DNA from: Nemertoderma westbladi
Lineage: Eukaryota > Animalia > Xenacoelomorpha
Assembly (NCBI GenBank): GCA_032718475.1
Contig: JAUCBJ010007119.1
Coordinates: 5,793 to 69,792 of the forward strand
Length of the DNA stretch: 64,000 nt
Reading direction: 5' to 3'
Part shown: positions 3,356 through 51,947 of the stretch, in pieces
Layout of the letters: every line of letters begins with the position of its first letter
Numbering within the stretch: position 1 is the stretch's first letter
Made by a program: the position numbers and the translations under genes
The notes under the pieces: generated by a model
Seen by the model: only the letters and a program-made list of their open reading frames with translations
Databases searched by the model: none
Told to the model about the DNA's origin: nothing

Positions 3356-3356
3356 G

Positions 3357-8392: not shown

Positions 8393-8403
8393 ATAACTGT
8401 TAT
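8393..8403 (-). promoter_or_regulatory. Non-tRNA primer-binding-site position of copy 1 (ATAACAGTTAT)
   Basis: Directly abuts the 5' LTR end with no TGG. Identical in copies 2 and 3. Complementary to the LTR motif at 9143-9153. Confidence 0.6.
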
Positions 8404-9582
8404 TGTACGCGCTTTTGAAGACCTTTAGCAGTTTAACCTGCCAAAATTTATATGTCTTTTGGTTTATAAATAGACTTTAGAAGTTGACAAATATTTAATA
8501 CCAATAAACACAACATTAGCAGAAGCCAGCCTAGTGCGCGTCCATTCACCCGCTGGATATACCCGGGAGACTGGATTCTGAGGGCTTAGATTATTATTGC
8601 AGTGTAAGCTTACTGTATTATTCGATTGATCGTTAATAAATAATTTCTGACTAATATTATTCACTTTCGGGAAATATTAACAGTTCCTTTAGGACATGGC
8701 GCTCTATCTAGGTAAACAGAGATATGACTTATACTAATCACAACGGCAAGTCGGTAAGGCTTATGATTCATGTATGAGGCGCATTCTTTAGGAAATGCTT
8801 AGTTATCAGTCACAATCAGGCACACTACCGGTAACACACAATACTGCTCACTAATTTGCCGACCGTCAATGAATTTTATCATATATAAAGCGAACAGCAA
8901 CGGACTCATGTAGTGCTTATCAAATAGCATTAAATTCACTACAAACCACAACAATATAAGTCGCAATCGCTATATATAACCCGTCTCTCTAACCTGTAGT
9001 CTATCAAGAAAATTGGGAAATTTGGGTTCTTTATGGATGTTCTCCAAATAATATTCAACCAACTGATACAAAATATGACAACAGTAAATAGCAGTATAAT
9101 AATGTATGTTGAACCGATAATGTAAGACTGAAGTGAGATAAGATAACAGTTATACGCTCTATAATTTAAGCCTACTAATGTTTCTTCTAAAGTATGAAAA
9201 CGAGTTGACTCTAGAGCCGGTGTTCCTGGCCTAGATAGAAACAACACAACAGTATCACGAAAAACAGTAAGACTGAACACTCCTAGTATGATCTGCCAAA
9301 ATATCTCCACATCGACAGAAAAAATCGCTCTGATTGGCTGTTAAGCTAAACAAAGAACCATGTGTCCAATGGCCGTTTCCATGTCAGCAACCAGCTGTTA
9401 GATGTCGTAATCTGAATCATCAAGGCTAAGCTGTGCAAGGGTATTTGGTGCATTGCGGGTTTTTTGCCTTACCATGTCCGCCAAAGCACGTATATAGAAG
9501 AATGACTTTCATGTCCGTTAAAACACCTATAACGGTACCTTGCGGGCGAGGGGGACTGAGTATATCCGCAAAAGCTTTTACA
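8404..9582 (-). repeat. 5' LTR of copy 1 (1179 bp, divergent subtype)
   Basis: Runs TGTACGCG...TTTTACA and is homologous to 18031-19204. Confidence 0.9.
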
Positions 9583-18030: not shown

Positions 18031-19204
18031 TGTTCGCGCTTTTAGACCTTTAGCAGTTTAACCTGCCAAATTTAGGTGTCTTCTAGGTTATAAATCGACT
18101 TTAGCCTATGACGAGTATTTGATACACTACATTAGCCGAAGCCAGCCTATGCGCGACCATTCACCCGCTGGATATACCCGGGAGACTGGATTCGGAAGCT
18201 CTAACCTTATTGCGATGTAGGCCTACTGTATTATTCGATTGATCGTTAATATATAATCTCTGACCAATATTATTCACTTTCGGGAAATATTAACAGTTCC
18301 TTTAGGACGTGGCTCTCTAAGTATGTAAACAGAGTTATGACTTACACTAAACACAACGGGATGGTTATTGATTCACGTATAAAGCGCATTCTTTAGGAGA
18401 AGCTTTGTTATCTGTCACAGTCATGCACACTACCGCACAATGCTGCACACCGATCTGCCGACCTTCACTAATTTTAGTCACATATAAAGAGAACAGCAAC
18501 CGACACATGTAGTGCCTATGAAATAGCATTAGATTCACTCCAAAACCAATATAATGTAAGTCGCAATTGCTATATGTAACCGGTCTCTTACCTTCAGTAT
18601 ATCAAGAAGATTGGGGTTTTATGATTATTTATCGATATTATCCAAATATAACAATATTCCATCAACTGATACAATTAATAACCGACAGTAAATAGCAGTA
18701 AAATAATGCGGTGTTTGTAGGTGACAATATGATTTGATTTGGCAGTTTGTGAATTGATAACAGTTATATGTTTCTATGATCAAAGCCGTTCTAATGTTTG
18801 GCTAAAGTCTGCAACACAGAATAATTCCACAGCCGATGTTCTGGCATCAGGAAAAAAGGTAAACATAAACCATAACGCATTGCGCGATTTCCCGGAGGCT
18901 TCTGTACAAATAAAATGAAAATCGCTCTGATTGGTCGACCGAACAAAGAACAAAGAAAAAGTTACACGTGTACATATCAGCTGATAGATGTCGTCATCTG
19001 AACTTATACTGTACTAAGAGTATTTTGGCGTATTGCGACATAAAATTGCTAGTTATGTCCGCTAAAGTACACATACAGAAGAAATGGCTTTTTATGTCCA
19101 CTAAAACACCGGTACAGTAAGGAAACGGCTTTTTATGTCCGTTAAAACACCTACAGAGTACTTTGCGGGGAAAATAACCAGCTAATTCCGCAAAAGCCTT
19201 TACA
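18031..19204 (-). repeat. 3' LTR of copy 2
   Basis: Direct repeat of 35592-36765. Confidence 0.97.
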
Positions 19205-19212
19205 CCGCTCCC
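19205..19212 (-). promoter_or_regulatory. Polypurine tract (GGGAGCGG); same sequence at 39039-39046 in copy 3
   Basis: Purine-rich run immediately upstream of the 3' LTR on the minus strand. Confidence 0.7.
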
Positions 19213-24200: not shown

Positions 24201-24519
24201 AGGAGCTTTATTGTACTTTAATAAGTATGGACATTTCATCTTACTGTAGTCACGTATTTATAATGTACTATGGACAGTAAGGAAAGAGAAAAAGAATTAT
24301 TTCTCGCCGTCGCACTAAATATATAATATAGAAGTAATTAAGTAATAAACGCAAATATATATATGGCACTAATCTACTAAATAATCGCTAAAATAACATT
24401 CTACTAAATAAAATTAAAGAAAACGATTATAATAAAATTACATAATAATACATACCTAAATATAAAAATAATGAAGACAGATATCAAATAATATAGTCAC
24501 ACACCCACTCCAGACGCTG

Positions 24520-27500
24520 TCACGTTGGGGAGTCCCTAGATGTTTGTTGGATTAGAGAGGTGGTCGTGGGAAGAGTATCTTGCCTTCCATAGTTTCCGGA
24601 AAGTTCTCTGTCTCTTTCCAGTAAACATAAACGACCAACTGGGCGATTGAGCTGCTGCGTCTCGAAGACAATTCCCGGTTTCTTAAAGTTGCCTCGCATG
24701 ACAACGAGTTCTACCGATCGCACCAAACCATCATCCGAGATATGAGTCTCGATGATACGACCTGTCTGCCACCGCTAACGTGGAAGATCTGAATCCACAA
24801 TAAGTACCATGTCTCCTGCGCTCACGTTTTCTTGCTGCGCAAACCACTTAGTTCGAAGTTGTAGCGTGGGCAGATAATGTTTTTCGAAATGGTCAGGGAA
24901 ACGACGGGATAACAACTGCATAAGTTGCCAAGTTTGCCGGCAGTATTCGTCTCCGTCTGTGATTTCCGATCGTGGGAGCATGGCAACAGGTTTCTTCAAT
25001 AGGAAGTGCGCGGGTGTTAGCGCTTCCAGGGAATCGGGACTCGATGAGACTGGCATAAGCGGCCTCTCGTTGAGATAGGCGGCGATTTCCTCCATTAACG
25101 TCCGCAAAAGTTCATCGGTGAGATACGCGCGGCACGGCACTATAAAGTGAAATGCGGTCTTCACGCTCCTGATTAATCTCTCCCAACTTCCTCCCCACCA
25201 AGGGGCGTCGGCGGCGTTGAAGGTCCAGCTAGACGCTGTTACCCTTAGCTGATCGTCCACCTGTCTTTGGTTCCAATCTTTGATGTAAGCTTTGATTTCA
25301 TTGTTGGCACCAATGAAGTTCGTTCCCTTATCAGATCTCATCGTGTTACTAGTTCCAAAGCGAGCGATCTGTCGGCGTAAGCTCAATAGGAAGCTGTTAG
25401 TAGATAAATCGTTCACCATATCGAGATGGATAGCTCTACAAGTCATATAAACAAAGATGACACACCATCTCTTGACTATAGTCCTAGCACGATATACTTA
25501 AATAGGGCCAAATAAATCTACACCGGTATTAGTAAAGGGTGGTTCATAGAAGCTTAATCGTTCCCTAGGTAATTCTGCCTCTCGCTGTGTTAAAGGCCTA
25601 CTGAATGCTTTCCTACAGGGTATGCAGTTCCTAAGAACTTGGTTCAGAGCTCTACGGGGTTTATAAAAATAATAGCGAGTTCGAATTTCGCTAAGAACTC
25701 GTTCTCTACCAGCATGATAAAGTTTGCTGTGAACATCTACAATCATCTTGATTTGTATTTCAAGATTTCTAATGAGTATGGGAAACTTAGTGTCAAAGGA
25801 TAATGGAGCATTAGTTAGTCTTCCTCCAACACGTATTAACCCATCTATCATTGTGTTAGAGAAACGATCCCTTAAGTGCATCTGTGGATTTCTCAACAAC
25901 AGGAAATACTTATCGGAATCCTCATAGCATTGCAGGAGTCTCAGCATCTGCTTATTGGTTTCTTCATGCTCCTGGTCGCTTGCGTCCTTCTGGGCTCCTC
26001 CCCGAGGTGCACCCACGAGGCGGACGCTGTCCCACCACCCTTGGGGCCAGTCTGACTCCGTTTTTATCAGACCGGGCCGGAGGGTAGCCCGATGCTTCCC
26101 GGGTTCAATTTTCAATCCCCCGATCACACCGGCACAGCTCGTCGGTGTAGCCAGATGGTCGGCTACTGTCAACTTACTGTGACCTGACTGTACATTGAGC
26201 CAACTCAGAGAGTCAACCGGCGGGTGGACCAGTCGATAGCGATCGAGCATCAAGGTCGCCCTTGAGCCAAACCGACGGTCTTGTCCCAAGTGGGCTTGCG
26301 CTACCCAACATGGAATTTTGACATGTTTTCACCCGCCTCGCCGGCAGTATTGAGGGAAAGTCAGTTCCGCAAACAATACTGACTAGCTCAAAAGCTAGGA
26401 ACAAGTAACCACTTACCAGTCACTGTACACGTGTACTCAACAGATGTTCACAAATCAAGTACACAATAGTAAACACATAATTGGACACATACCATGCACA
26501 CACAGAGGACATAATCGGGAAAGACGAATGGGTCACAAAATCAGAGGGGACAAAATTGTATCGACTAATAAAAGAGTCGAGAGTACCTTATTTTGCCGTC
26601 AGGGCAAAATAACTTTGTGTGCACAAAGTATGCTGGGGCGCAGTAAAGATATTGTGCTACTAATACCAGCGGCGTCTGGACCAACCGGCAAGGGTTCCCA
26701 TACTCACTCGCAGTGGCCACACATACAATCACGTGTACTCACGCACCCACAGCAACAGAAAGCTCATCTCAGACCCAAACACACCCCAAAGACCAATCAG
26801 CTGAACATGGAGACAATAACATATAGTATCAAAAAAACGGAACAGCTGACGGTCAATGGCACACATCCAAGCCCCAACGCAAGCTAACTGCCACTGGTCG
26901 CCCACATACAAAACACAGTTCACACCATATAACACCACAAATCACGCCATGCCACCACCCCTACTGTGTACAGGACTGGCAGTACGGCAACAGGCCGACT
27001 AGACGGTACCACGGCACCATGTTGATTCATGGTTCGCTAGACACGAGGGCCTTCAGTAACTCCCTTGCACCATAGAAGAGATTTAGTGTGCCCCCAGACC
27101 CTCACGAGTCCGCCGCCGCCTGTTTCAGTCACCCCTATAGAGACCTCACCTCCTTGGGTAACTGATCTTCTCCTTCAGAAACCTGTCGGATATCTTGTAT
27201 TTGGGAAGATCTTTAACAACATGGACCTGCGCAGATGTCAGTGGAGCGGTATCACTAGTGGTCTTCGTCCTGGAGTAGTGATGATGAAAACATCGCTTTA
27301 AATATATAACGGCCTTACAGAGCCGATTCCAGGAACTATAATGATGTATCGCTCTCTGCAGGAGAGGTGAGAGTCCTTGCGAGACATCTGGTATTCCAGA
27401 TTTCCAATCCCTCTCTCTGATTTCCACAACAGACTTATTTGTGGCTGTGGGTTTCGGATCCAAAGCGTCGTCTCCGGAAGTGTGTAGTACAGACAGATCT

Positions 27501-30500
27501 ATCACAGGTTTAAATAACTTCGATTTACTCGCCCGGATTTTAGGTTTTACTTTCTCCGCTCCCTTGGCCTGTCTAATCTCCGCTGTAGTAAGATGAGGAG
27601 GCCATTCATCCTCTTCTTTGCTTAGGAAGTCGGGTCCACCTAACCAGTCTGGAGTATCTATCAGTTCTTGTGGAGTTGCTCCCCTGGAGGCGATGTCTGC
27701 TGGATTAATCGTTCCGGGGCAATGTCTCCATTGATCTATCTTCGTGCGACTAAGTATAATGGCTACTCTGTTGGTAACGAAGACGCTGAACTGACAGACT
27801 TCATTGGTTATATACTCCAACACGAGTAAAGCATCGGTCCAATAGACAGTTTTTTCCAGTGGGTAGTCGATCTGTTCTGTTACATTCCGGCCGATGGCTG
27901 TAGCATATAGAGCCGCCTTTAACTCCGCTCGAGGAACTTTCAACTTGTTGTTTATCAAGGCCTTAGAGGTAACCAAGGCGATCTTAATTCCATCCGGAGT
28001 TTCAACTCTCAGGTAGGCTACTATACCTATTCCCATATCGCTGGCGTCTCCAAACACATGGAGTTGATAGGAATACGTAGGGAGAACATGACCAAAATAT
28101 GAACAGGTAATTATAAAGTTCTCGATGGCTGGTAGAGAATCTTCCCATTTCATCCACTTCCTTAATAGTTCTCCCTTAAGTGGATCGTCCCATGAGTGGT
28201 TTTCAAGCCACATTTGTTGTACTAAACTCCGAGCAATCAATATAACTGGGCTAATAAATCCCAATGGATCGAAATAAGTGCTCAGGATACTTAAACAAAT
28301 CCGTTTAGTCCGAACTGGATTATCTCACTGTTTTAGCTGGAAAAACAGGATATCTCTCTCTGTGTCCCATTTCAAACCAAGTGTCTTGGTTTCTGGAAGA
28401 TCGTCTTTGATCAGGTCTAGATCTTTAACTCCTCGATCTTCTACCGGGATCGATTCCAGAAACTCACGGGAGTTGCTGGTGAATTTAGTTAATCGAAATC
28501 CACCTCTTTTTAAGCACTCTACCGTTCCTTTGGCGACATCAATGGCTTCTTCCACTGATGGGAGGGACTGTAAATTGTCGTCCATGTATATATCCCGTTT
28601 GATGTTGTCGATCACCTCTTTAGAGAAGGCGTCCCGGTTGTCATCAGCAGTGGTTCGCACCACTGAGCAGGCGTTTGAAGGGCTTGAGATGATCCCAAAA
28701 GCCTGGATGGTCATCCAGTACTCCACCAGTTTCTGGTTGAGGTCTCCTTCAGGCCACCACAGAAATCGTAGGCTGTCTCGATCCCTATCCAGCGCCTTGA
28801 CTTGTAAGAACATGCCTTCTATATCAGAGGCGAAAGTGATTGAATATTGTCGTAATCTTAAGAGTATTCCCAACAAGGATTGGAGTAAGTTGGGTCCTGG
28901 CAACAACTCGGAATTAAGGGATTGGCCCATGTAGAGGGCGGAGCCGTCAAATACTACCCGGACTTCATTGGGTTTACCGGGTTTGGGAACATAATGATGT
29001 GTTAGATAGAACGTTCTCTCAGTTATGGGTGTTTCCTCCGGTACTCGCTCCGCATATCCCTTGTTAATAAATTTCTTCAACTGAGTCTTGTACATTTCCT
29101 TAGCTGAAGCATTTGCCGTAAGGCGTCGATGTAGTTGCGCAATTCTTTTCTCCGCCAAGGGTCGGTTGTTTATAAATTTAGGTTCTCGCTTTCGAAATGG
29201 TAGACCGATTTCATATCTACCTTGATCTTTAAGAAAACGTGTAGTTGTCTCCTGGATCTGCTTGGCTCTTTCTTCTTCTACCGATAGGGCCTTATCGTAG
29301 GAATTGTGCTCTACACCCTCTTGAGTAAAGAATCGTACGGCGTGTTCATCCCGAGTCTTCGCGTTGTAGCGATCTATTACGTCATTCAGTTCGTCGTTAT
29401 AGTCGACTTGTCCTGATGGACGAATGAGTTGACATAGGTTCACTTGGTTTTGCCAAGTTTCGTTTTCCGTAAGGAGGTCAATGTTATTCTCCTCGTCGAA
29501 GAGTTGGTGGATATCGTCATTATCTGAGGAGTATGGTGTTCCCTCAGTTGGGTCGTCCACCTCACTGCTCTCCGCTTCCCATTCACTTACTTGGTAGACC
29601 CGTTCTTTGGGTAACCTTTCCATGAGAGTTCTACGGGAAGGGCCAGTAAAGTACCAACCTACTCTAGTTCTTCCCGCATAGGCTTGTAGTGGTTGCGGTT
29701 GAGCAGGCCGTTTCTCCAATGTCTCAAGCACCTCATGCGCATTTTGGCCGATGAGTATTTGCACTCCAGGGTAGTCTGTGTTGAATCTAGGTATCTCAAG
29801 CTGCTGGGTGAAATCGTCCTCCTCCCAGTTATAAGGTTCCACTTGGTTGGTAGCGAAGTTCTTTATCGCCACCATTTTTACTGACCTTATACTGTGTTCT
29901 CCTAGTTCATCCTGGGGGGTGGACAACGCACCTACATAGTAATCTGCAATTACTGTAGATTTCCAAACCTGCATAATTCCTGACATGTTTAACTTAGTTC
30001 GGAACTTGGGTTGTCCAGCAAAGATGTCTTCGGCTAGTTCTTTGTCAATGAATGTTCCTGTGCTGCCGGAGTCAAGAAGGGCATTCACTATATAACTTTT
30101 TCGTGGCCCGTGGACTCTCAACTGCACTACGGGAAATTCTCGGATTCCTACATTTGAAGTTGGTGCTTTCCAAGATGGTTGTCGGTCAGGAGTAGTTAGG
30201 GGGGCTCACTGTCGGTGTCCTTTTCATACGTAAGTGCTCGATACACTGCGGTATTTATTAGGTAACAGGATTCGTTTTTGTCGGAGAATTCGTCCGTATA
30301 GAATCCTTCCATCTCAGAACTTTGGTCAGTGTCGTTCACATCACTGAATTGGACATGTAGTTCGGACTCACTTACCTGACTCGGGCTGTTTCGTTCGAAT
30401 TCAGTGTGCAACAAGATATGATGTTTTGCGCCGCACTTTGCACACCTTGCGTCGGAGTAACAGGTTCGCCGTTGGTGTCCTTGTCTGAGGCAATTATAAC

Positions 30501-33500
30501 ACAACCGCTTATCCCACATGACTTCACGTCTATCCTTTAATGATTTCTTTAGGAATTCATCACACACATTCAAACGGTGGGGCCCGTCACACAGCGCACA
30601 TTTCGGTTTGATGTTACTTACTTTACTTTGAGTAACATTGTGCACACTCATTCTTTCTTCGGGCTTTCTTACATGAATTCTCTTAGGAGACGTAGGAGGA
30701 GTTTTTCTTACCTGTTCTCTCCTGTCATTGATTCGAGACTTGAATTTACTTACGTCTTTAGGCGTTTTGTTGACATAATAAGATCTTTCAGCGTCTTTCC
30801 CGCTGTCCTCTTCTTGAGAAGCCTGGCTTTCGCCATCGTCGGTATAACACACTGGTGTTACCTTTCTCCTAGAAACGGGTTTCTCACTTACCTTATTTTC
30901 CGGTGTCTTCTCTCTGGACTGCTTTAGGAGCTGTAATTTTACTTCTCCATCTAAGAATTACATGAGATCAGCCATGGTAGGGTCTCGTCGTTGTTGTTCC
31001 ATCATATATAACACTTTCTTATCCCAGCGTGTACCTACTCCACCCTTTGGTAAAGTAGAGGCCACGGCTCCAATAACCATAGAACTCTGATATTCATGAG
31101 ACTTACCTAGCCAATCTAATTGTGTACAGATCTCCTGAATCTCATCGGAAAACTCTATAATCCCGCTGCTAATGAACTTTCGGGGCGCTACCAATTTTGC
31201 ATACAAATACCTAGCTATGTTATTCCTATTACCATACCTGATGTTAAGAGTATCCCAAACTTGTCTTAATCCATCTGGATGTCCAATAAACTTTAACGCC
31301 ATTAACTTGGGAGATCCTTCCAAGCACTCGATGAGGAATCTAAGTTTCTCTCCGATAGATAACACAGAGTTCTGTATGTTATCTATGTAATATTCATTAA
31401 AAGGTAACCATTTCATCTCATTTCCATTGAACTTGACGATCTCACCTACCTTTACCACTTGACGGGCTTCGGTTCTAGCCATTTGACACGTAAAACTTTC
31501 TTGGGCCATTGTGTTATTTAATATCGAGCTATCGGTATATAAATTTCTCGGATTATGATCAGGTCTATATGGAATATCATTGTCAACAGGTTTATAATTA
31601 CCCTTAATAGGGTTTACTATAGGAGTTTCTACTTCACTAGCAGTATAGATGCGTGTAGGCTCCACACCTTGCGCATGAAATACTTCAGACCTAACAGGTT
31701 GACACATTGTTACCGGGGTTGGTGGTATACCCCTTTGGGTATTCACCAACCTATCGCGTTCCAATGCGATACTCTGCTGCACCTCTTGCAACTCTAACCT
31801 ACTTTCCCTTACCGTGCCCTTGAACTGCTGAACAGTTCCTTCCATCTCCCGGACCTGCTGAGAGGAGCACTTACGGTGTTCCCTCAACTGCCCGAGCAGA
31901 AGACCCATCTCTCGTCGTCCCTCCTATACCCACTCTACCGCCGAAGCGGGAGCCGCCAACATAGTAGCGGGCGGACGAGGGACAACGGGCAACAAATCAT
32001 TGATATTTCGCTCGGAGTCCAGGACAGGAACCGTCTCAGGGGTTGTTCTGCTGGGCACAGGTAGTTTTGTGCTGTGCAAAGGGAATTTAGAGGTAGGTTC
32101 TGGGAGTACAGGTGTCTCTATCACCGAAGGGGTGGCTTCGAGAACAGGCCTAATTATTTCAGGCTCATCTACTATAGTAGGGAGTCTTTCTATTTTAATA
32201 ATTTGGTCTGTGGGTTCTGTACTACCTAAGTCTGTGCTAGCTAGTTGCCTTCTAACAGCTGGGGGCAAATCAGGCAATTTCTGACGGTGGGACATTCTTC
32301 TACGCCTACTTAGACGAGACCTACTTCCTCCGCCTTCAGGATCGGTGGTATCGCCTTCATCAGAGGATGTAAATCCCTGTCATTTGGGAGTAGATCGACT
32401 CATCATCTGCATTTGACTAGCTGTTAACTGTTTATTTATGCAGTCTTGATTCTCTTGAATATTTTCCAACTCTAGTTGGGTGGTCTCTTCAGATGCTATT
32501 CGTTCCGCTTCTGCCACCGCTATCTTTCTTTCCGCTTCTATTGCTGCAGCTGCCGCTTTTGCCTCTGCCGCTGCTTCTGCCGCCTTTCTTTCCGCTTCTG
32601 CCGCTGCCATTGCCGCTGCTGCTGTCTTTCTGTCTTCTATACGTTTTTTCTTTACTTGTTCTTCTTGGACCCTAGCGATGCGGAGTCTTTCATCAAATTT
32701 AGCTTGGTTCGCAGCTAACATTTCCGCATCGATTGCATCCAACACAAGCTTGGCTCCTTCACTATTAGGGCGAAGTCCAGACAGCCGTCTCCTCAACTCT
32801 TCGTCACCTAGGAATCATTGATAGTCTGACAGATAGATGTCAATAGCGTCTCACCCGCTGGAACCAAGTCTTTACGGCAACTTGCAACGACGTGTCTTGT
32901 CTTCTTTTCGAAGCTTCCTCAAAGGCCGATAGGATTAGTCTGATTCTTAGAATTCTTTCTCTAACTTGATAAAGCAGCTCTTCCTGCTCTTGAGGTCCTT
33001 GGGGTTGTCGAAACAGTTGTTCCTCTAATCGCTCTAAAGAGCTGAAGAATCCCTGTACATATCCTGCTGCCGACCTCTTCCACACAGCTGGATCACTAGT
33101 GTCTTTTGTCACTCCCACCCTGTGTATGTCTTCCCAGGCAGCTTCCGATAAGTCAAACGGGAGTCCGGGTCCGGGGAAGTTCCATTGCGACTCGACAATA
33201 GACTTCAGTTCCTCCCTTGTGTATCCCGCATAACTGTCCTTGGTCGATCGCTTACTTCTCACCCAATCAATTTGGTGTTCCTCCACCGCAATCAATACCC
33301 TAGTGAGTACGGCTGCAGGAAGAATGAGAAGGGGATCCGAATAAACCGCATCTGCCATCTTTGCTCCTCGCTCGGGTGTCAACTCTACAGTATCCGAACT
33401 ACTGGAGCTATCGGGCCGCTGAGAAATAAGTTCTTGGCTAGGGTGTTGCTGCTGTTTAACAGCTGCTTCCTGGTCCCGCTTGACCTGAGCCCGAGTGCCT

Positions 33501-33676
33501 ATGATAGACCTACGGTGTTGGACTAGCCTAGGGTCTGATAGCACTACTGGAGGGATGATCTTTCTTACAGTAGGAGGTGAGTTGAACTTTGGTCTCACAC
33601 GTTCCACACTCCTGTCTGGGTCACAGATGGTTGTATCTAGGAGACTGTCTGACAGGTTTTGCTTTGTGTCAGACAT
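24520..33676 (-). pseudogene. Copy 2 gag-pol polyprotein, fragmented by stops, frameshifts and a group I intron
   Basis: Gag with a triple knuckle (CALC..H..C, CYNC..GH..C, CAKC..HH..LH), protease ALLDSGS, RT YMDD, RNase H VFGDAS...NPADIASRG, integrase HAG..CIPC / GVDLFGP / SDKGTNF / GGSWERLI, and a DUF5641-like tail. Confidence 0.93.
25977..27159 (-). ncRNA. Group I intron (ID-like core, no ORF), 1183 nt, in the RNase H-integrase linker of copy 2
   Basis: The 5' exon ends in U, paired with G in P1 (TCAGTT|ACCC : GGGTGACTGA). P3 is GGCGGGTG/CACCCGCC and P7 is GACTG/CAGTC, with S element AATGTACAGTC. The intron ends in G, and excision restores KISY-QEHEE in frame. Confidence 0.85.
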
Positions 33677-35580
33677 GTTTGTTTGTACAGTTGAATGCCT
33701 ACTGCTATATTACAGTTAAAGCAAGTCTAGTAATTCAGTATCAACTGTTAGCCTAGTAATTAATTACCGATATCGTTACTCAGTGTAACGTGATATATTT
33801 ACAATATATTAGAGTACCGGTATACACTTATAGTATATATATAAGTATTATTACAGACTAGGTTTGTCACAGAATACCGGTATATAATTTCAGCGCAAAT
33901 ATATATAAATATATAATAAGCCTATCGTGAATACCGGTATACAGCTTACACTTATAGTATATATAAGTATAATTATAGACTAGAATTAATTACAGAATAC
34001 CGGTATATAATTTCAGCACAAATATATAGAAATATATAATAAGCCTATCGTGAATACCGGTATATCAATTATTTTAGAATAATTGAATTTCTGAAATTTA
34101 GGGTTACTTGGTTACTTTACTTTACTTTATTACTGTTATTTAAGCAGTAGTCCAACTGACATTAAGACCTAATTGTTGTAAGACAGGCCTACTATTTTAT
34201 AAATCGGTTTGAGTTGATTTATAATATATATACCCGTTTAATGGGTTTTTGTCAATATTTGAAATAAATGTTATTATTTCTGGGAAAGAGTCACTACACA
34301 GAAGCTCTACACTCTCAGTGAAGTGCTACTTGTTGGACACTAAAACAAATAATTCTAATTTACCTAAGTTACTTAATACTACAAATTACGTACAATTACG
34401 GGGTGAGATTACAATCTCTAAATAAACACAAAAAATTACACGTACGAATTTTTTTTTAGGGTAATTTTACTAGAAGTCTACAAGCCAGCCTAACAAAGGG
34501 TTAGAATATCTGGTTCTTACAAACGGACAGGATACTACGGTATTTGAAAGTAATAAAGCAGTAGTAAATATACTGCGTTGTCCAGATAGGAAAAATACCA
34601 CCGTCTGACGACTTATAGCCATAGCGCTATAAGTACTACGTTATGTATCACGGAGTGTTCCTACCTAGAAGTTAATTACCGCGGCCTAACAGAGCCAACG
34701 TGCCTATCAACCACTTTACAACACAAATATACTGCCTACACACTAATTACCTTCGGAAAGCACTGTACACTAAACCCTAAATTAGGTACAAGTACTTATA
34801 CAACAAATAACCAGCAGTTAAAAATACTTGAACAGCTAAATGAACCACGGTATCTGCCGGAGTGACCAACGCATAAAATCTCCAGTCTTTACCTACGCCA
34901 AACAGCCCTGATGTAGTACCGGGGTTAATTTAACTATAACGGTATGGATAACAAGCACAATTACTGTAGGAATAAACTTGGGGGTATGAATGTTGCGAAT
35001 AATCGCATAAACTCTGAATAATAAATATTACGCTACCCTTACAGACTACACAAACAAAATACAGACCAAACGCTGGCAGACTACTATCAAGCCTAAATAA
35101 ACTACAGTATATGCAGACTCCGAAATGGTTAGTTAGTATGCGTTCTAACCGAGTAGTACGACTTATTCTTTCAGGGGGGATTTACCTTACAGCACTGGAT
35201 GCCCACCACTTTCCTAACTAGTACTTTATCGGACATACACTCTACATACACTGCAATCTCTTCAGACTTAACAACAGTCAGACAACAGTCTAGCCTACAA
35301 ATTACCTGTACAATCTGAGCAGGCTTACACGTCTTCTGCTCAATATTAACTTACAAATAAATAAAACTGACAGAAATAGGCCTAAGTAAAATCCCAATAA
35401 AAAACCAGGCGTCCCCGATTAAATATTAAGACCTACCGGTATATAATTATCTAAATCGAATAATATTGCTGTACTTGTACTGCTGTAAGTACCGGTTCGG
35501 GTAGTTAGGCAGTCAGGCCTACTGGTTGCCGGTCGACCAGTACTTTTGCCTTTTTATTGCCTACGTGCAATAAAGAAGCT

Positions 35581-35591
35581 ATAACTGTTAT
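35581..35591 (-). promoter_or_regulatory. Non-tRNA PBS position of copy 2 (ATAACAGTTAT)
   Basis: Abuts the 5' LTR and is complementary to 36318-36328. Confidence 0.6.
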
Positions 35592-36765
35592 TGTTTGCGC
35601 TTTTAGACCTTTAGCAGTTTAACCTGCCAAATTTAGGTGTCTTCTAGGTTATAAATCGACTTTAGCCTATGACGAGTATTTGATACACTACATTAGCCGA
35701 AGCCAGCCTATGCGCGACCATTCACCCGCTGGATATACCCGGGAGACTGGATTCGGAAGCTCTGACCTTATTGCGATGTAGGCCTACTGTATTATTCGAT
35801 TGATCGTTAATATATAATCTCTGACCAATATTATTCACTTTCGGGAAATATTAACAGTTCCTTTAGGACGTGGCGCTCTAAGTATGTAAACAGAGTTATG
35901 ACTTACACTAAACACAACGGGATGGCTATTGATTCACGTATAAAGTGCATTCTTTAGGAGATGCTTTGTTATCTGTCACAGTCATGCACACTACCGCACA
36001 ATGCTGCACACCGATCTGCCGACCTTCACTAATTTTAGACACATATAAAGAGAACAGCAACTGACACATGTAGTGCCTATGAAATAGCATTAGATTCACT
36101 CCAAACCCAATATAATGTAAGTCGTAATTGCTATATGTAACCGGTCTCTTACCTTCAGTATATCAAGAAGATTGGGGTTTTATGATTATTTATCTATATT
36201 ATCCAAATATAACAATATTCCATCAACTGATACAATTAATAACCGACAGTAAATAGCAGTAAAATAATGCGGTGTTTGTAGGTGACAATATGATTTGATT
36301 TGGCAGTTTGTGAATTAATAACAGTTATACGTTTCTATGATCAAAGCCGTTCTAATGTTTGGCTAAAGTCTGAAACACAGAATAATTCCACAGCCGATGT
36401 TCTGGCATCAGGAAAAAAGGTAAACATAAACCATAATGCATTGCGCGATTTCCCGGAGGCTTCTGTACAAATAAAATGAAAATCGCTCTGATTGGTCGAC
36501 CGAACAAAGAACAAAGAAAAAGTTACACGTGTACATATCAGCTGATAGATGTCGTCATCTGAACTTACACTGTACTAAGAGTATTTTGGTGTATTGCGAC
36601 ATAAAATTGCTAGTTATGTCCGCCAAAGTACACATACAGAAGAAATGGCTTTTTATGTCCACTAAAACACCGGTACAGTAAGGAAACGGCTTTTTATGTC
36701 CGTTAAAACACCTACAGAGTACTTTGCGGGGAAAATAACCAGCTAATTCCGCAAAAGCCTTTACA
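35592..36765 (-). repeat. 5' LTR of copy 2
   Basis: Direct repeat of 18031-19204, followed by TSD GGGTA. Confidence 0.97.
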
Positions 36766-36984
36766 GGGTACAGTACGTGTCTAGCCCTTTTAATCTGCAC
36801 CCCCCCCCCCCCACCCTTCCCACCCACCAATACATAACCGCGACATCTACCACCCACGGAAGGGTAGCGCGAACTTATTTCCAATCGCACATTCAATATG
36901 CAAGGCCAGGTGGTTTATAGGAATATAATAAACGCAGTACTCGTTTTCATTATAAGCCTCGTTGCGTTCGTCCTGTTTTGAATT

Positions 36985-37883
36985 TAAATATATTTCTTAA
37001 ACGCAGGCTAGGACGATCTTTATAATAATAATAACTAGGGATGCGATCAATGTGTGAAGCCAGGTGGTTTATATAATAATATAGTCAACGCAATATTCCT
37101 CTTCTTTATAAGCCTCGTTGTGCTCGTCCTGTTTTGTATTTAATTATAGTTCCTAAACGCAGACTGACGATCTTTATAACTACCGATGCGTTCAATAGGC
37201 GCAGCCAGGTATGGTTTATAGGAATATAGTCTATGCAGTACTCGTCTTCATTATATGCCTCGTTGCGCTCGTCGCTCGTCCTGTGTTGTCATAAAATATT
37301 TTTCCTAAACGCAGACTGACGACCTTTATACAGTTATAACTATGCGAAGTTTCGAAACTGTGCGAGTAACTGCTGATACATCTATGTGGAGATATGTGAT
37401 ACAATGCCAACGCATCGTATGCCGATGTAGTAATATCTGAATATGGGTATTGAAATAATATTATATCAATGTACACTCTTAAAATGCAGCAAAAAATTGT
37501 AGCTAATTTCATTGGTTACATATAAAATAATAAAATTATTTTTAAGAACATTAATTTTACTACTTTACAAAAATTCAATTAAAAAATAACCAGACAAATA
37601 CATTGTGGAATAAACTATTTCATATATAAGCCTACACAACAGCCATGCCATGGATAGTATTTATGTTATTATATCTGTCATTTACCTGAGATAGCAATAC
37701 AACATTTATAGTAGAGTCAATAGGAAGTGGAATACAGGAAGGATGGTGGGATGTGGGATTTAAAGAATGCTGTCTGGGCTGGAATAGCAATACTGGTTGC
37801 CTATTACAATTCCTCTCTGGTTAGTCTACAGCCACAACTCCCAGCTAGCTAGCTCCACACCAGCAGAGACTTGACCAATAATC
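36985..37883 (+). repeat. Dispersed repeat, second copy at about 54735-55500
   Basis: Colinear, highly similar sequence from AAATATATTTCTTAAA to GACTTGACCAATAAT. Confidence 0.75.
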
Positions 37884-37897: not shown

Positions 37898-39038
37898 TGT
37901 TCGCGCTTTCAGACCTTTAGCAGTTTAACCTGCCAAATTTAGATGTCTTCTAGATTATAAATCGACTTTAGCCTATGACGAGTATTTGATACACTACATT
38001 AGCCGAAGCCAGTCTATGCGCGACCATTCACCCGCTGGATATACCCGGGAGACTGGATGCAGAAGCCTTGACCTTATTGCGGTGTAGGCCTACTGTATTA
38101 TTCGACTGATCGTTAATATATAATCTCTGACAAATATTATTCACTTTCGGGAAATATTAACAGTTCCTTTAGGACGTGGCGCTCTAAATATGTAAACAGA
38201 GTTATGACTTACACTAGACACAACGGGATGGCTATGGATTCACGTATAAAGCGCATTCTTTAGGAGATGCTTTGTTATCAGTCACAATCATGCACACTAC
38301 CGCACAATGCTGCACACCGATCTGCCGACCTTCACTAATTTTAGTCACATATAAAGAGAACAACAACCGACACATGTAGTGCCTATGAAATAGCATTAGA
38401 TTCACTCCAAAACCACTTTAATGTAAGTCGCAATTGCTATATGTAACCGGTCTCTTACCTTCAGTATATCAAGAAGATTTGGGGTTTTATGATTATTTAT
38501 CGATGTTAACCAAATATAATAATATTCCATCAACTGATATAATTAATAACCGACAGTAAATAGCAGTAAAAATGCGGTGTTTATAGGTGACAATATGATT
38601 GGTGTTGAGTTGGTATGGTTTGTGGTTTGATAACAGTTATACGTTTCTATGACCAAAGAAAACTAATGTTTGGCTAAAGCCTGAAACACAGAAATTCCAA
38701 AGCCGGTCTTCTGGCTGTGGACAAAATACACATACTGACTGAATTGCATGAGTTTCTGTATACAATCTCCAACACAGAGTCAAAAAACGCTCTGATTGGT
38801 CGACCGAACAAAGAACGAACAAAGAACAAAGAAAAAGTTACACGTGTACATATCAGCTGTTAGATGTCGTCATGGTAACTACACTGTATCAAGAGGATTT
38901 TGGCTTATTGCGACATAAGATCGCTAGTTATGTCCGCTAAAGTACACATACAGAAGAAATGGCTTTTTATGTCCGTTAAAACACCTACAGAGTACTTTGC
39001 GGGGAAAATAACTAGCTAGATCCGCAAAAGCCTTTACA
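37898..39038 (-). repeat. 3' LTR of copy 3 (lacks one 41-bp U3 repeat unit)
   Basis: Direct repeat of 50766-51947. Confidence 0.95.
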
Positions 39039-39116
39039 CCGCTCCCAGAAAATGGGATTTAATTCTATAAAATATAAAAAATCACAGTTTCTAAAATATA
39101 AAAATACTCTAAACAG

Positions 39117-40668
39117 TTAGTTTTTCTTGCGCGGACGGCATTTACGCAGTTTTTTGGGGCAAGCAAGAGTCCTTTTCTCTTTGGGGCGAGCCACTTTACT
39201 AAGAGGGCTATAACCCTTGGGTGAAGGGTGCAATACAATTGCATCAGAAGGTTTAGGGTTACGGTCGGTGTATCCGCCAGTCGAGGTACCCGGTTGATCG
39301 GTATCAACCTCAGTGGAACGAGGTCGAACAACCTTGAGAGCGCGTTTTGAGACAGCAGCTCTTACTGGTCCCTGACGGGTCGTCTGAACGATAGCGGTAG
39401 GTGGACCGTGTATAGTGAGAAATTTCCTCGGTTTGATGATTCTTTCCAACTCGCGTTCTCGGGCTCTATCGGAATCGATATGCTTCTCCTCGAGCTGATT
39501 TTCCTCCGCTTGTTGTTGAAAACATTTGTCCAAACTCTTGCAGAAAGTAGAGCCGTCCAAGTTCAATATCTTCTTAGAGATTCTGGATTTTCTGATCGAA
39601 CTGAGACAAAGCTAATTCGTCCACCGCTTGGACCTGTTGCTGCAATTTACGTTTCTCTAAACAATTGTAGGTTCCTTTTCCGATCTTTTGAAGAATAGTG
39701 TCCAACACGTTTCGTACAACTCTCTCCTCCGCCTTGGTGACAAGTTGTATCGGGTTAAACCGGGACAATGATACGGTTGAATGACGATATTAGATGTCCG
39801 CGTCCCAATCCGGCTAGGTAAGATTGGCGAATATTTAGGGAGCCCACAACCGGAGTGCCACCGACTAATTATTCGGGTAACACTAGATCTTTGAACAGTG
39901 AGTACAGTTCGGGAGGATCCGTGATACTATTAGGATCAAGAGTCTGAAGTCTAACTAGGAAATGAGGAGGTCTGACTGAGTACTCCGGAACTCTGATCAT
40001 AGGTTTATTTAAGGATCGTTTGAGTCGAGCGAGCGTAGGTGATACATCGAACAAGTTTCGCTCGAAACTCCCGTAAATATAGCGAGTAAAACCGTGTTTA
40101 AAGCAACGTCTCCGCGGATGTTTATGTCTTTCCGTTTGTTGGTTGGGTCTTGGGCATTCATCGCAATAATACCAAAGACGCACATCTTGTAGGGGAAACG
40201 CGGGTGATATTTATTCGGTTTTACAATGTTTCTCTCAAGAATTCCAAATATACGTTGGAGTTACCGCGTTTATTCGGTTCTTTAACGTCTTCTCTTTCGA
40301 GTCGATTTCGAATAGAATTTTCGCATTCGATTCTCAATTTATCGTTCCGACTCAGCTGGGTATGATATTTAAATAGGACCATTTCCCTTTCGGTGTCGAT
40401 ATCGTCCGTATCGTGTAAATTTGATAGGATGGCCAGTAGTTAAGACGTCCATATACGTACCATTACGATGCGTATAGCGAGCGGTGAATTTTCTATAGTC
40501 CAATTCACGCGTAAGTTGCTCCTGGGACATTGGCGGTTCGATATAACGACCATCGTCCTCCGTAGTAGTTGGACCAGCGTCGCCGCGTATCAAGCTATCG
40601 ACAAACGCTTGTAAAGGTAGAGTATATCGCTCCCTGATACCAAGATCATCTTCTATCAACTCAGTCAT
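39117..40668 (-). pseudogene. 3' accessory ORF of copy 3 (frameshifted; shares both ends with copy 2, different middle)
   Basis: The MTELIEDDLG... start and ...RARERELER...KKLRKCRPRKK end are shared with copy 2. The middle contains YYCDECPRP...HKH...CFKHG. Confidence 0.65.
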
Positions 40669-42398
40669 ATCTGCTACATGAGTTTATCAATATTATAATG
40701 AGTTTATATTTAGGCTAGCGGGCGTCGCTGCCTACCCCTCTTGGCCCCCGGACAGCGCAAGATACTCAGCGCTGGTGTACTTTCGCCGATGTGCCTATCG
40801 CCAACGTCGTAGCTGCACAACGACCACAACAACCAGCGCGAGTCACTCCACCGTCCGTCCCAAAGGCTTAGATTTACTTCAGGTTCTTACTGGAGAGTTA
40901 GGGCTACTTTCACAATTGCGACTCGCTACTGTAAACACACTTTAGTAGTAACATTCACCTATAAACGCACAAATTCCACACAACTGTCACAAACCGTACA
41001 CATTCGGGCCATTTTTCCGTTAGTCAGTGCCTTCCAGAATGCCACGTTATTATTGTGTATCCTTGGATACTAGCAGTGTGCTATTTACTCCCTATGCTAT
41101 TCAATGGGGCAAGCTTTCTATTGTTCTTTAACTCACTTCTAATTCTAGCGTGGTTGTTGCCATGGTGACATTATGGAAAGCTAGCAGTAGAATTAGGGTA
41201 ATTCTCATGCATACAGATCTGGGATGCTATTTAATAGTAATTCTTTAATTGTCAATATTCCTCTTTATACATGATGTTATGAATTTTATCGGCTATTGAC
41301 TATATATTGGAGATTCTCGCACACTAATATACTTAATAGGGTGAATCTCCGCTCCCATGATCTATTAATTTATGGAATTTTGGGAATGTTATAAATTGTA
41401 TAAAAATGACAATTTATCAAATTCATTAAAAGATGAATTTAAATTTATTCCCGTAAATTTTATTATTTAATATTAAATAGACACAATTTTATTCAAGAAC
41501 ATGTCTGGGGACTGGGATCCTTGATTCTAGGAAATTGGTCTTTTTAAGAATATCGGTAAGTGCTACGATATCTTAATAGTCTAGAATTTTAAAGGATCTA
41601 AAATTTGGCAGATTTTATAAATATTAATAGTTAATATTTAGGATGGGCACCAGTTTATTCCAGAACTTGTCTGGGGACGTTAACCACTGATTCTAGAATT
41701 TTGTCTTTTAAGTATATTGGTGGGTGCCGCGATATCTTAATCGACTAGAATTACAGATGGTCAAAGGGTTTAACAGATTTATTTTGCGTTTTACGCTACT
41801 GTTAAAGGGACATCACGCTACTATATGTATTATTTAATATACGGTATGAGAGCAATATCGCAAGAAGCAATGTCAGTGAGAAGAGGCAAGTCATTTCCAA
41901 GGTCTACCCAGAGCTTGGTTTAGCCGAGACACGAGGATCTGAACTTTGCATTCCTAATACTCTACTTACCAATAATACTTGAATATAGTAGGAGCTTTAT
42001 TGTACTTTAATAAGTACGGATATTTCATATTACTGTAGTCACGTATTTATAATGTAATACAGACAGTAAGGAAAGAGAAAAATAATTATTTCTCGCCATC
42101 GCACTAAATATATAATATATAAGTAATTAAGTAATAAACGCGAATATATATTGCACTAATCTACTAGATAATCGCTAAAATAACATTCTGCTAAATAAAA
42201 TTAAAGAAAACGATTATAATAAAATTATATAATAATACATACATAAATATAAAATAATAAAAACAAATATAAAATAATATAGTCATACACCCACTCCAGA
42301 CGTTGTTACGTTGGGGAGTCTCTAGATGTTTGTTGGATTAGGGAGGTGGTCGTGGGAAGAGTATCTTGCCTTGCATAGTTTCCGGACAGTTCTCGGTC

Positions 42399-48300: not shown

Positions 48301-48567
48301 AGGGGGTTGTTGCTGTTTGACAGCTGCTTCTTGATCCCGCTTGACTTGAGCCCGAGTGCCTATGACAGACCTACGGCGCTTCACTAACTTTGCAAATTGC
48401 AAAATTGCTTCTACTAACCTAGGTTCTGACACAGCTACTGTAGGGGTTGCCTTTCTTACAGTAGGAGGGGTCTCAGACCTCGGTCTGGGATTCTCTATAC
48501 TCCTATCTGAGAAACAGACTGTTGTTTCTAGGAGACTATCTGACAGAGTTTGCCTTGTGTCAGCCAT
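42399..48567 (-). pseudogene. Copy 3 gag-protease plus pol remnants
   Basis: 930-aa gag (48567-45775), a frameshift into a 483-aa knuckle-protease ORF (45793-44342), then the intron and RNase H/IN remnants. Confidence 0.9.
43058..44355 (-). ncRNA. Group I intron (ID-like core, no ORF), 1298 nt, in the protease-RT linker of copy 3
   Basis: P1 is AAAGGT|ACCT : GGGTGCCTTT with U-G at the splice site. The core (43267-43420) matches the copy 2 intron. Excision restores MERLPKERVYQ exactly as at the empty site in copy 2. The terminal base is A, not G. Confidence 0.82.
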
Positions 48568-50754
48568 GTTTGATTGTACATTTGAATGCCTACTGCTATA
48601 TTACAGTTAAAGCAAGTCTAGTAATTCAGTATCACTGTTAGCCTAGTAATTAATTACCGATATCGTTACTCAGTGTAATGTGATATATATACACAATATA
48701 TTAGAATACCGGTATACATTTATAGTATATATATAAGTATTATTACAGACTAGGTTTGTCACAGAATGCCGGTATATAATTTCAGCACAAATATATATAA
48801 ATATATAATAGGCCTATCGTGAATACCGGTATACAGCTTACACTTATAGTATATATAAGTATAATTATGGACTAGAATTAATTACAGAATACCGGTATAA
48901 TTTCAGCCTAAATTTATAGAAATAAATATAATAAGCCTATTGTAAATACCGGTATGTCAATTATTTTAGAATAATTGAATTTCTGAATTTTTAGGGGTTA
49001 CTTGGTTACTTTACTTTACCTTATTACCGTTATTTAAGCAGTAGTCCAACTGATATTTAGACCTAATTGATGTATGACAGGCCTACTATTTTATAAATCA
49101 GTTTGAGTTGATTTATAATATGTATATACCCGTATAATGGGTTTTGTCAATATTTGAAATAAATGTTATTATTTCTGGGAAGGAGTCACTACACAGAAGC
49201 TGTGCGCTCTCAGTGAAGTGCTACTTATTGGACACTAAAACAAATAATTCTAATTTGCCTAAGTTACTTAATACTACAAATTACGTACAATTCGGGGTGA
49301 GATTACAATCTCTAAATAAACACAAAAAATTACACGTACGAATTTTTAGGGTAATTTTACAAGAAGTCTACAAACCAGCCTAACAAAGGGTTAGAATATC
49401 TGGTTATTACAAACAGACAGGATACTACGGTATTTGAAAATAACAAAGCAGTAGTAAATATACTGCGTTGTCCAGATAGGAAAAATACCACCGTCTGAAG
49501 ACTTATAGCCGTATCGCTATAAGTACTACGTTATGTATCACGGAGTGTTCCTACCTAGAAGTTAATTACCGCGGCCTACCAGAGCCAACGTGCCTATTAA
49601 CCACTTTACAACACAAATATACTGCCTACACACTAATTACCTTCGGAAAGCACTGTACACTAAACCCTAAATTAGGTACAAGTACTTATACAACAAATAA
49701 TCAGCAGTTAGAAATACTTGTACAGCTAAAAGAACCACGGTATCTGCTGGAGAGACCGGGGCACAAAATCACCAGTCTTTACCTACGCCAAGCAGCCCTG
49801 ATGTAGTACCGGGGTTAATTTAACTATAACGGTATGTATAACAAGCACAATTACTGTATGAATAAACTTGGGGTTGTGAATGTTGCGAATAATCGCATAA
49901 ACTCTGAATAATAAATATTACGCTACGCGTACAGACTACTCAAAAAAAATACAGACCAAACGCTGGCAGACTACTATCAAGCCCAAACAAACTACAGTAT
50001 ATGCAGACTCCGAAATGGTTAGTTAGTATGCGTTCTAACCGAGTAGTACGACTTATTCTTTCGAGGGGATTTACCTCACAGCACTGGAAGCCCCTACGTT
50101 CCTAACTAGTACTTTATTGGACATACACTCTACACACACCGCAATCTCTTCAGACATAACAACAGCCAGGCAACAATCCAGCCTACAAATTATCTAAATA
50201 AGAAATATTACGCTACCCGTACAGACTACACAAACAAAAATACAGACCAAGCGCTGGCAGACTACTATCAAGCCTAAACAAACTACAGTATATGCAGACT
50301 CCGAAATGGTTAGTTAGTATGCGTTCTAACCGAGTAGTACGACTTATTCTTTCGAGGGGATTTACCTCACAGCACTGGAAGCCCCTACATTCCTAACTAG
50401 TACTTTATCGGACATACACTCTAAACACACTGTAATCTCTTCAGACCTAACAACAGTCAGACAACAGTCCAGCCTACAAATTATCTGTACAATCTGAGCA
50501 GGCTTACATTTCTTCTGCTCAATATTAACCTACAAATAAATAAAACTGATAGAAATAAGTAAAATCTCAATAAAAAACCAGGGCGGCCGTCCCTGATTAA
50601 ATATTAAGGCCTACCGGTATATAATTCTCAAAATCAAATAATACTGTTGTACCTGTACTGCTGTAAGTACCGGTCCAGGTGGTTAGGTAGTCAGGCCTAC
50701 TAGGTACCGGTCGACCGGTACTTCAGCTTTATTGCCTACTGCAATACAGAAGCA

Positions 50755-50765
50755 ATAACTGTTAT
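50755..50765 (-). promoter_or_regulatory. Non-tRNA PBS position of copy 3 (ATAACAGTTAT)
   Basis: Abuts the 5' LTR and is complementary to 51498-51508. Confidence 0.6.
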
Positions 50766-51947
50766 TGTTCGCGCTTTCAGACCTTTAGCAGTTTAACTTG
50801 CCAAATTTAGATGTCTTCTAGATTATAAATCGACTTTAGCCTATGACGAGTATTTGATACACTACATTAGCCGAAGCCAGTCTATGCGCGACCATTCACC
50901 CGCTGGATATACCCGGGAGACTGGATTCGGAAGCTTTGACCTTATTGCGGTGTAGGCCTACTGTATTATTCGACTGATCGTTAATATATAATCTCTGACA
51001 AATATTATTCACTTTCGGGAAATATTAACAGTTCCTTTAGGACGTGGCGCTCTAAATATGTAAACAGAGTTATGACTTACACTAGACACAACGGGATGGC
51101 TATGGATTCACGTATAAAGCGCATTCTTTAGGAGATGCTTTGTTATCAGTCACAATCATGCACACTACCGCACAATGCTGCACACCGATCTGCCGACCTT
51201 CACTAATTTTAGTCACATATAAAGAGAACAACAACCGACACATGTAGTGCCTATGAAATAGCATTAGATTCACTCCAAAACCACTTTAATGTAAGTCGCA
51301 ATTGCTATATGTAACCGGTCTCTTACCTTCAGTATATCAAGAAGATTGGGGGTTTTATGATTATTTATCGATGTTAACCAAATATAATAATATTCCATCA
51401 ACTGATATAATTAATAACCGACAGTAAATAGCAGTAAAAATGCGGTGTTTATAGGTGACAATATGATCGGTGTTGAGTTGGTATGGTTTGTGGTTTGATA
51501 ACAGTTATACGTTTCTATGACCAAAGCCTACTAATGTTTGGCTAAAGCCTGAAACACAGAAATTCCAAAGCCGGTCTTCTGGCTGTGGACAAAATACACA
51601 TAATGACTGAATTGCATGAGTTTCTGTATACAATCTCCAACACAGAGTCAAAAAACGCTCTGATTGGTCGACCGAACAAAGAACGAACAAAGAACAAAGA
51701 AAAAGTTACACGTGTACATATCAGCTGTTAGATGTCGTCATGGTAACTACACTGTATCAAGAGGATTTTGGCTTATTGCGACATAAGATCGCTAGTTATG
51801 TCCGCTAAAGTACACATACAGAAGAAATGGCTTTTTATGTCCACTAAAACACCGGTACAGTAAGGAAACGGCTTTTTATGTCCGTTAAAACACCTACAGA
51901 GTACTTTGCGGGGAAAATAACTAGCTAGATCCGCAAAAGCCTTTACA
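50766..51947 (-). repeat. 5' LTR of copy 3
   Basis: Runs TGTTCGCG...TTTACA, followed by TSD AACTG. Confidence 0.95.

Follow-up and report, generated by a model that had tools for sequence, protein, structure and literature searches.

Reverse transcription primed by the RNA of the element itself (self-priming) is described for Tf1, Tf2 and Tj1 and for the Tf1/sushi group of Ty3/gypsy chromoviruses. The primer of Tf1 is 11 nt in length, and RNase H cuts between bases 11 and 12, according to the sections covered of PMC7175516 and PMC4600332. Those of PMC10085805 set out a 'pretzel' of three duplexes in the Tf1/sushi elements, two of which join bases adjacent to the primer-binding site with bases of the long terminal repeat (LTR) downstream of the primer. 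For BEL/Pao elements (Belpaoviridae), the profile issued by the virus-taxonomy committee ICTV gives an 18-nt site for tRNA-Arg or tRNA-Gly, priming by host tRNA and a length of 4.2-10 kb. The words PBS, tRNA and self-prim are absent from the BEL/Pao survey PMC3118150, PMC5443660 and PMC5445492 mention self-priming for Tf1 only, and a full-text literature search, with subscription journals outside its coverage, found no report of self-priming in BEL/Pao. Here we analyze 64 kb of DNA from Nemertoderma westbladi (contig JAUCBJ010007119.1, positions 5,793 to 69,792), which we term the window, and a BEL/Pao retrotransposon present there in three copies.

We consider it probable, at roughly 0.6, that this family is self-primed. 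From the arrangement of the sequence, the site ATAACAGTTAT next to the 5′ LTR would bind ATAACTGTTAT of the element's own LTR-derived RNA, and not a tRNA. A sequence-only reading of the window had proposed Tf1-like self-priming. The principle of that proposal has stood, as the site is complementary to its own LTR and a tRNA-type site is lacking, but not every detail of Tf1 is supported.

A site beside the 5′ LTR is complementary to the LTR

Self-comparison of the window reveals three copies (A, B and C) of one LTR retrotransposon family, all on the minus strand. Copy B (18031-36765, 18.7 kb) has a 5′ LTR at 35592..36765 and a 3′ LTR at 18031..19204, each 1174 bp, that are 98.5% identical (18 mismatches and no gaps) within a target-site duplication of TACCC. 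Copy C (37898-51947, 14 kb) has a 5′ LTR of 1182 bp (50766..51947) and a 3′ LTR of 1141 bp (37898..39038) that are 98.7% identical, with the duplication CAGTT. Copy A is cut by the start of the window and contributes a 5′ LTR of 1179 bp (8404..9582). It belongs to a diverged subfamily, its LTR being alignable with that of B only from around position 360 onward at 77-81% identity (about 81% over the 3′ 700 bp). The LTR ends are exact in all copies, running from TGTAAAGG to ACA and thus TG..CA, and the target duplications of B and C are 5 bp.

The family is assigned to BEL/Pao (Belpaoviridae) because of its gag, pol and integrase domains in Pfam, which bears out the earlier assignment. These are Peptidase_A17 (E 1.2e-35), the Pao retrotransposon peptidase, found in the pol fragment of copy B at 27146..28324 (-); DUF1759 (E 1e-12 to 1.7e-10 in the three copies), the BEL/Pao gag domain, found in copy B at 30958..31923 (-); and the zinc domain Integrase_H2C2 (E 1e-07). 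The gag and pol domains, the TG..CA LTRs and the short target duplications are all as in BEL/Pao elements.

In each of the three copies the sense strand reads ATAACAGTTAT from the first base past the ..ACA of the 5′ LTR, with a spacer of 0. The primer-binding sites so placed lie on the minus strand at 8393..8403 in the diverged copy A, 35581..35591 adjoining the 5′ LTR of copy B, and 50755..50765 in copy C. The exact complement ATAACTGTTAT is present in five of five LTRs, at about LTR position 430-440 (9143-9153 in A; 36318-36328 and 18757-18767 in the 5′ and 3′ LTRs of B; 51498-51508 and 38630-38640 in those of C). An exact-match search of the window thus returns every coordinate given in the sequence-only reading. 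In copy B, the candidate self-primer of the 5′ LTR (36318..36328 (-)) occupies LTR positions 438-448, 726 nt upstream of the primer-binding site. When motif and site are paired, the 3′ end of the primer falls opposite the first base after U5. The pairing is exactly 11 nt in A and C, and 12-13 nt in B because both flanks happen to match.

No TGG is found in the first 50 nt of the leader in copies A, B or C; the zero spacer and the lack of a TGG-initiated tRNA site reported earlier both hold in all three. ARAGORN detects no tRNA genes in the window, and an Rfam search of the LTR and leader (34800-36800) at a permissive threshold gave 0 matches. Judged by the TGG search of the leaders, the 18-nt site for tRNA-Arg or tRNA-Gly of the ICTV profile is not present. 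What is present is the arrangement of the Tf1/sushi group, with a site beside the 5′ LTR that is complementary to the same LTR over 11 nt exactly.

A CCAAT box is located 167 nt upstream of the motif, close to the 165 nt stated previously, and an invariant 12-mer TATAACTGTTAT in all five LTRs is followed by about 48 poorly alignable bases. The claim that the motif stays invariant while its neighbors vary is correct for the 12-mer and the 48 bases that come next, but the motif is not the sole invariant block, as there are others of 35-40 nt downstream. The alignability of the LTRs from about position 360 onward would fit a variable U3 with the U3/R border near the motif.

Comparison with chance

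We have sought to estimate how often such a match would arise by chance. Each LTR was shuffled 2000 times, and complements anchored at -2 to +3 of the LTR end with a length at least that observed were counted; the frequencies are 0.001 (B), 0.0035 (C) and 0.004 (A). Using as controls 232 anchors shifted along the real 1.2 kb after the LTR, the observed length was matched by 1 (B), 1 (C) and 2 (A). If G-U pairs are allowed, 22-42 of the 232 anchors match and the test loses its power. The 11-mer with up to one mismatch occurs 26 times in the window against 2.69 expected, a count reached by none of 100 shuffles. The family was chosen for its match, and these figures alone are not decisive. We conclude nonetheless that the match of 11-mer and LTR is not due to chance.

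A further exact copy of ATAACAGTTAT at 54487-54497 (-) lies in unique sequence outside the elements and adjoins no LTR. About 0.03 such occurrences are expected per 64 kb, and this one is probably due to chance.

RNA folding

RNAduplex identifies the motif as the best partner in the LTR for the site in all three copies, with energies of -14.5, -16.0 and -15.3 kcal/mol. The LTR bases TAGAAACGT just upstream of the 11-mer (36329..36337 (-)) can pair with 35573-35580, just downstream of the primer-binding site. The helix is extended 9-12 nt upstream of the 11-mer by AGAA with TTCT in B, ATAGAA with TTCTGT in C and ATAGAG with CTTTAT in A, a single A-U to G-C substitution separating C from A. In the minimum-energy fold of an RNA assumed to start at the motif, the first 12 (B) or 8 (C) bases pair with the site; in copy A forcing this pairing costs 1.9 kcal/mol. 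The three-duplex 'pretzel' of Tf1/sushi was not found, the approximately 48 nt past the motif being unconserved among A, B and C, where they vary more than any other part of the region, and unpaired with the site-adjacent bases in constrained folds.

Contiguous complements in related elements

The pol fragment of copy B was used as a query for relatives. The nearest proteins in a large protein collection are about 40% identical, and those that are named belong to a nemertean, an abalone, a coral and arthropods. Scanning viral contigs gave 1 pattern match and 0 relatives. A scan of metagenome contigs gave 565 relatives, from which 79 loci with 30-42% amino-acid identity were kept; these are labeled here with L numbers. 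A repeat pair is present in 21 of the 79, many of them being assembly overlaps or having a truncated 3′ LTR, and the usable loci were grouped into families by cross-comparison. ARAGORN found no tRNA genes in the 30 of the 79 loci that were scanned. Two LTRs fix the ends in four families (L007, L018, L016/L019 and L058), and in these no TGG site begins at the first base after the LTR; most of the families with an LTR end that could be set lack such a site.

L007 has the contiguous 10-mer GTTACTTCGA at offset 0, with the complement at position 125 of an LTR of 326 nt, and this is equaled by none of 232 controls. In other families the contiguous complement is 7-8 nt only, matched by 8, 13, 26 and 50 of 232 controls. 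A tree of 31 rows has 14 of 28 inner branches open and places the window on a long branch; it lends no support to any order of events.

Three attempts to fix LTR ends or partners by other means were set aside. Prediction of the LTR end from terminal inverted repeats works for L079 and fails on the known cases L007 and L018. An open scan anchored on CA is noisy, with 1-6 matches of at least 9 bases per locus. Comparison of L079 with L073 to fix the LTR end showed no similarity.

Complements across splice junctions

We find a second form of complementarity in the relatives, in which the partner of the primer site is created by removal of an intron from the LTR. In this search every GT and AG in the LTR was taken, donors lying 40 nt or more ahead of their acceptors, and the joined exon end and exon start were compared with the complement of the site at offset 0-4 past the LTR. 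The same search at 120 shifted anchors served as a control. Seven families have a predicted GT..AG intron in the LTR whose joined exons give 10-14 nt of pairing with their own primer site, equaled at 0-3 of the 120 control anchors.

The junction is AAAGCT joined to TCAAAC in L018 (682-1077; intron gtaagt..ttttcag; 12 nt, 0/120). In the single family L016/L019 it is CAAA joined to TTCGAAC (L016:3490-4131; gtaagt; 11 nt, 3/120), and in L028, with L069 reading alike, TGAT joined to TTCGAAC (L028:836-1344; gtaagt; 11 nt, 0/120). The two longest pairings, both of 14 nt at 0/120, are those of L046 (2634-3171; gtatgt), where GAAAGAG joined to TTTTTAC lies against GTAAAAACTCTTTC, and L079 (1729-2311; gtgagt), where AGAT is joined to TTTTCGTTAC. 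Junctions in L058 (10 nt, 0/120) and L063 (11 nt, 2/120) complete the set. The best junction in L007 is no better than chance (7 nt, 10/120). The introns are 75-194 nt in length, and longer in L063.

The junction sites are canonical, with donors gtaagt (three times), gtgagt and gtatgt, and with cag or tag closing the pyrimidine tracts. Since the search required only GT and AG, this constitutes independent support. L016, L058, L063, L028 and L069 are not fully independent of each other, because the start of exon 2, TTCGAAC, is common to them.

The letters of the primer site differ from family to family, and in eight related families each matches its own LTR, contiguous or spliced. This is the outcome of the test for co-variation in relatives that the sequence-only reading had called for, and the two families L043 and L024 show no such pairing. 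Pairs of site and LTR that are specific to each family are hard to reconcile with a shared host primer, and favor self-priming. Moreover an upstream exon precedes the junction primer in seven families, which places the primer inside the RNA; it need not be the first bases.

Several readings were discarded. The T-rich tract followed by AG in the relatives was rejected as an initiator at the start site, as the tracts proved to be 3′ splice sites in the junction tests. A contiguous 8-mer as the partner in L018 was superseded by the 12-nt junction, and a donor-like CTGCAAA/GT in L016/L019 was dropped as it lies downstream of the acceptor and is out of order. A junction model for the window family is not conserved, the best matches, which use differing acceptors, being 11 in B (where the donor, GTTATT, is weak), 10 in A and 6 in C. 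The window family is thus of the contiguous type, like L007.

Separately, there is a strong donor-like CTGAAG/GTAAGA at LTR position 614/622 in B/C (36152 and 51326 (-)), weaker in A, that lies between the motif and the primer site. No acceptor to partner it was found in the window LTR; there is one acceptor-like site at 365 in B, which is unmatched.

A possible mechanism of self-priming

These observations suggest the following scheme. The genomic RNA would start no further downstream than LTR position 438, which would put the motif in the 5′ R region. Site and motif, 726 nt apart, would anneal in cis or from one packaged RNA to the other. A nuclease, either the RNase H of the element or a different one, would then cut after the last T of the motif, and the cut 3′ end of the ATAACTGTTAT RNA would be extended by reverse transcriptase, with minus-strand strong-stop DNA running from the cut primer through U5 and R. 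Plus-strand synthesis would copy the RNA primer, so that the primer-binding site would be re-created. Such re-creation would keep the 11-mers exact complements, including the central A/T, even though the LTRs of the subfamilies are only about 81% alike. Unlike in Tf1, the primer would not have to be the first bases of the RNA. The Tf1 detail in the earlier proposal, a primer made up of the transcript's first 11 nt, is not supported in that form: relatives with a junction have an internal primer, and the pairing in the window extends 9-12 nt upstream of the 11-mer.

A broader interpretation is possible, and we offer it tentatively. A large BEL/Pao lineage of marine invertebrates may have dropped tRNA priming and now use an own-RNA primer in two interchangeable forms, either spliced from an LTR intron or contiguous. 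The contiguous form might arise by reverse transcription of an LTR copy that is already spliced, and the 11-mer of the window would then be a fossil exon junction.

Evidence against self-priming and alternative explanations

A number of observations weigh against self-priming. Some concern the window family itself. Other blocks of the LTR are conserved equally well or better than the motif, those of 35-40 nt further downstream being invariant, and the 11-mers are identical across A, B and C, giving no co-variation inside the family. The motif is palindromic at all but its centre, so that a single base separates 'complement' from 'direct repeat with a changed centre'; the caveat entered in the earlier reading on this account stands. 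The partners are 726 nt apart, whereas in the relatives the distance is roughly 130-290 nt. AATAAA is missing from all five LTRs, and so R and U5 cannot be drawn. TATAA is conserved in all five LTRs at two places, inside the invariant 12-mer and 60 nt before the LTR end. The 12-mer could act as a TATA box; transcription would then begin about 30 nt downstream, and the 5′ end of the RNA would not include the motif. A contig set guessed to be RNA (share 0.18) gave 371 short pieces, mostly less than 95% alike, that are uninformative on transcript starts and ends.

Others concern the relatives. L043 (52/232 controls) and L024 (85/232) have both LTRs, and show no complement either contiguous or across a junction. 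L024 has TGGAGCAGG 5 nt past the final base that its truncated 3′ LTR has in common with the other LTR, and this may be a tRNA-type (TGG) site. These non-matching families (L024:5118-5140 and L043:464-520) are grouped together in the tree (94/63). The metagenome contigs lack matching target duplications. The LTR ends of L046, L079, L028 and L069 are not set by a second LTR; that of L079 is backed by a terminal inverted repeat of 10 of 12, and that of L046 was chosen by the complement scan itself. The LTR end of L063 is ambiguous by about 8 nt.

The alternative that best survives is that the LTR motif is a promoter element, either TATAAC as a TATA box or a factor site of palindromic form, with transcription starting downstream. 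Pairing would then occur only through the copy in the 3′ LTR, as a 5′-3′ cyclisation like that of Ty1 CYC5/CYC3, or would be fortuitous, and the primer would be something else. The TATAA within the invariant 12-mer, one of only two conserved in all five LTRs, the CCAAT box upstream, the near-palindromic form common to many factor sites and the additional exact 11-mer at 54487-54497 outside the elements are all as a promoter element would have them. Yet it leaves no primer at the sole place where a primer must anneal, and a chance match of such length is rare. A further point against it is that indels shift the spacing between TATAA and the CA-type start candidate conserved next to it by up to about 15 nt among A, B and C. 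In addition the LTR partners in the relatives are without TATA and still pair with the primer sites. We therefore regard a purely promoter role as unlikely.

It is also improbable that a host RNA primes synthesis, be it a tRNA fragment, a mitochondrial tRNA or a small RNA ending in ...ATAACTGTTAT, with the copy in the LTR a coincidence. Three diverged copies carry the site unchanged, as if it were tied to a host RNA, and CTGTTAT might conceivably be taken for an anticodon loop bearing the anticodon GTT. Against this, the lack of TGG excludes the 3′ CCA end of a tRNA, the region has no tRNA or Rfam match, the complementarity ends after exactly 11 nt in A and C, and the flanks vary between copies. 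A shared host primer would not predict that the differing sites of related families match their own LTR or their own splice junction.

Lastly, the near-palindromic 11-mers, together with a perfect 18-nt palindrome in the leader and a separation of 726 nt that makes pairing in cis less obvious, might point to dimer linkage between two genome copies, with any priming in trans by the motif of one RNA on the site of the other; we think this doubtful to a like degree, since site-to-site pairing leaves a central A-A mismatch where motif and site match perfectly in every copy, neither the contiguous complement of L007 nor the complements at the junctions of L046 and L079 form palindromes, and priming in trans is in any case a form of self-priming rather than an alternative to it.

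Other features of the elements

The leader next to the primer-binding site contains several structures. A hairpin formed by TTTATTGC and GCAATAAA lies right after the site (35553..35574 (-) in B) and is retained in all three copies, with AATAAA in the 3′ arm. About 45 nt past the primer site the leader of copy C has the 18-nt perfect palindrome GTACCGGTCGACCGGTAC (50704..50721 (-)). The first 15 nt are kept in copy A (8346-8360 (-)), and copy B has one change (35529-35543 (-)). We regard the palindrome as a candidate site for RNA dimerisation or for a hairpin. Between primer site and gag, all copies have a 2-kb untranslated leader with tandem repeats of about 290 nt (49942-50486, 7371-8052 and 34912-35305).

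A short purine-rich tract GGGAGCGG precedes the 3′ LTR, at 19205..19212 (-) in copy B and the same in C at 39039-39046 (-). The gag open reading frame (45775-48600 (-) and 377-3424 (-)) has about 800 residues ahead of the DUF1759 domain that are without a Pfam match. An open reading frame of 542 amino acids at 19283-20911 (-), just before the 3′ LTR of copy B, has the position of an env-like gene; neither Pfam nor a sequence search of the solved structures in the PDB gave a match. The DNA flanking copies B and C is itself repeated at 86-92% identity, 36893-37882 resembling 54731-55500, and 51994-52476 resembling both 55489-55966 and 17357-17881. Copies B and C are independent insertions into this repeat array, with different target duplications.

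Comparison with known systems

If the family is self-primed, the process arose at least twice, in Tf1/sushi and in BEL/Pao. Host-tRNA priming is a family character of Belpaoviridae in the ICTV profile. Such elements would likely escape control by the host through tRNA-derived small RNAs aimed at primer sites. Programs for LTR annotation, which are built on tRNA-complementary sites, would mis-score them as lacking a primer site. The relatives with spliced primers would couple the onset of reverse transcription to RNA processing by the host, an unusual kind of control.

Two further systems offer precedents. In Ty1 the CYC5 and CYC3 sequences make a long-range pairing between sequence close to the primer site and the 3′ LTR; the primer is a host tRNA. 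The primer of copia is an internal piece of the initiator tRNA. Ty1 thus provides a precedent for pairing of the site region with the 3′ LTR, and copia for a primer that is not a 3′ end. Both are primed by host tRNA, unlike the window family, on which no tRNA match can be placed.

The elements share with canonical BEL/Pao (Semotivirus in the ICTV scheme) their TG..CA LTRs, 5-bp target duplications, DUF1759 gag, Peptidase_A17 pol and integrase zinc domain. They differ in having no tRNA-type site and in their size of 14-19 kb as against 4.2-10 kb. Compared with Tf1/sushi, as described in the sections covered, the likeness lies in the absence of a tRNA site and in a short site right after the 5′ LTR that is complementary to the same LTR, over 11 nt as in Tf1. 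The differences are the BEL/Pao domains in place of those of a chromovirus, the 726 nt between partners, the absence of a detectable 'pretzel', and the splice-built primers of the window's relatives, which do not figure in those sections of the Tf1/sushi descriptions. By this comparison, the mode of priming is probably Tf1-like in principle, set in another family and differing in its details.

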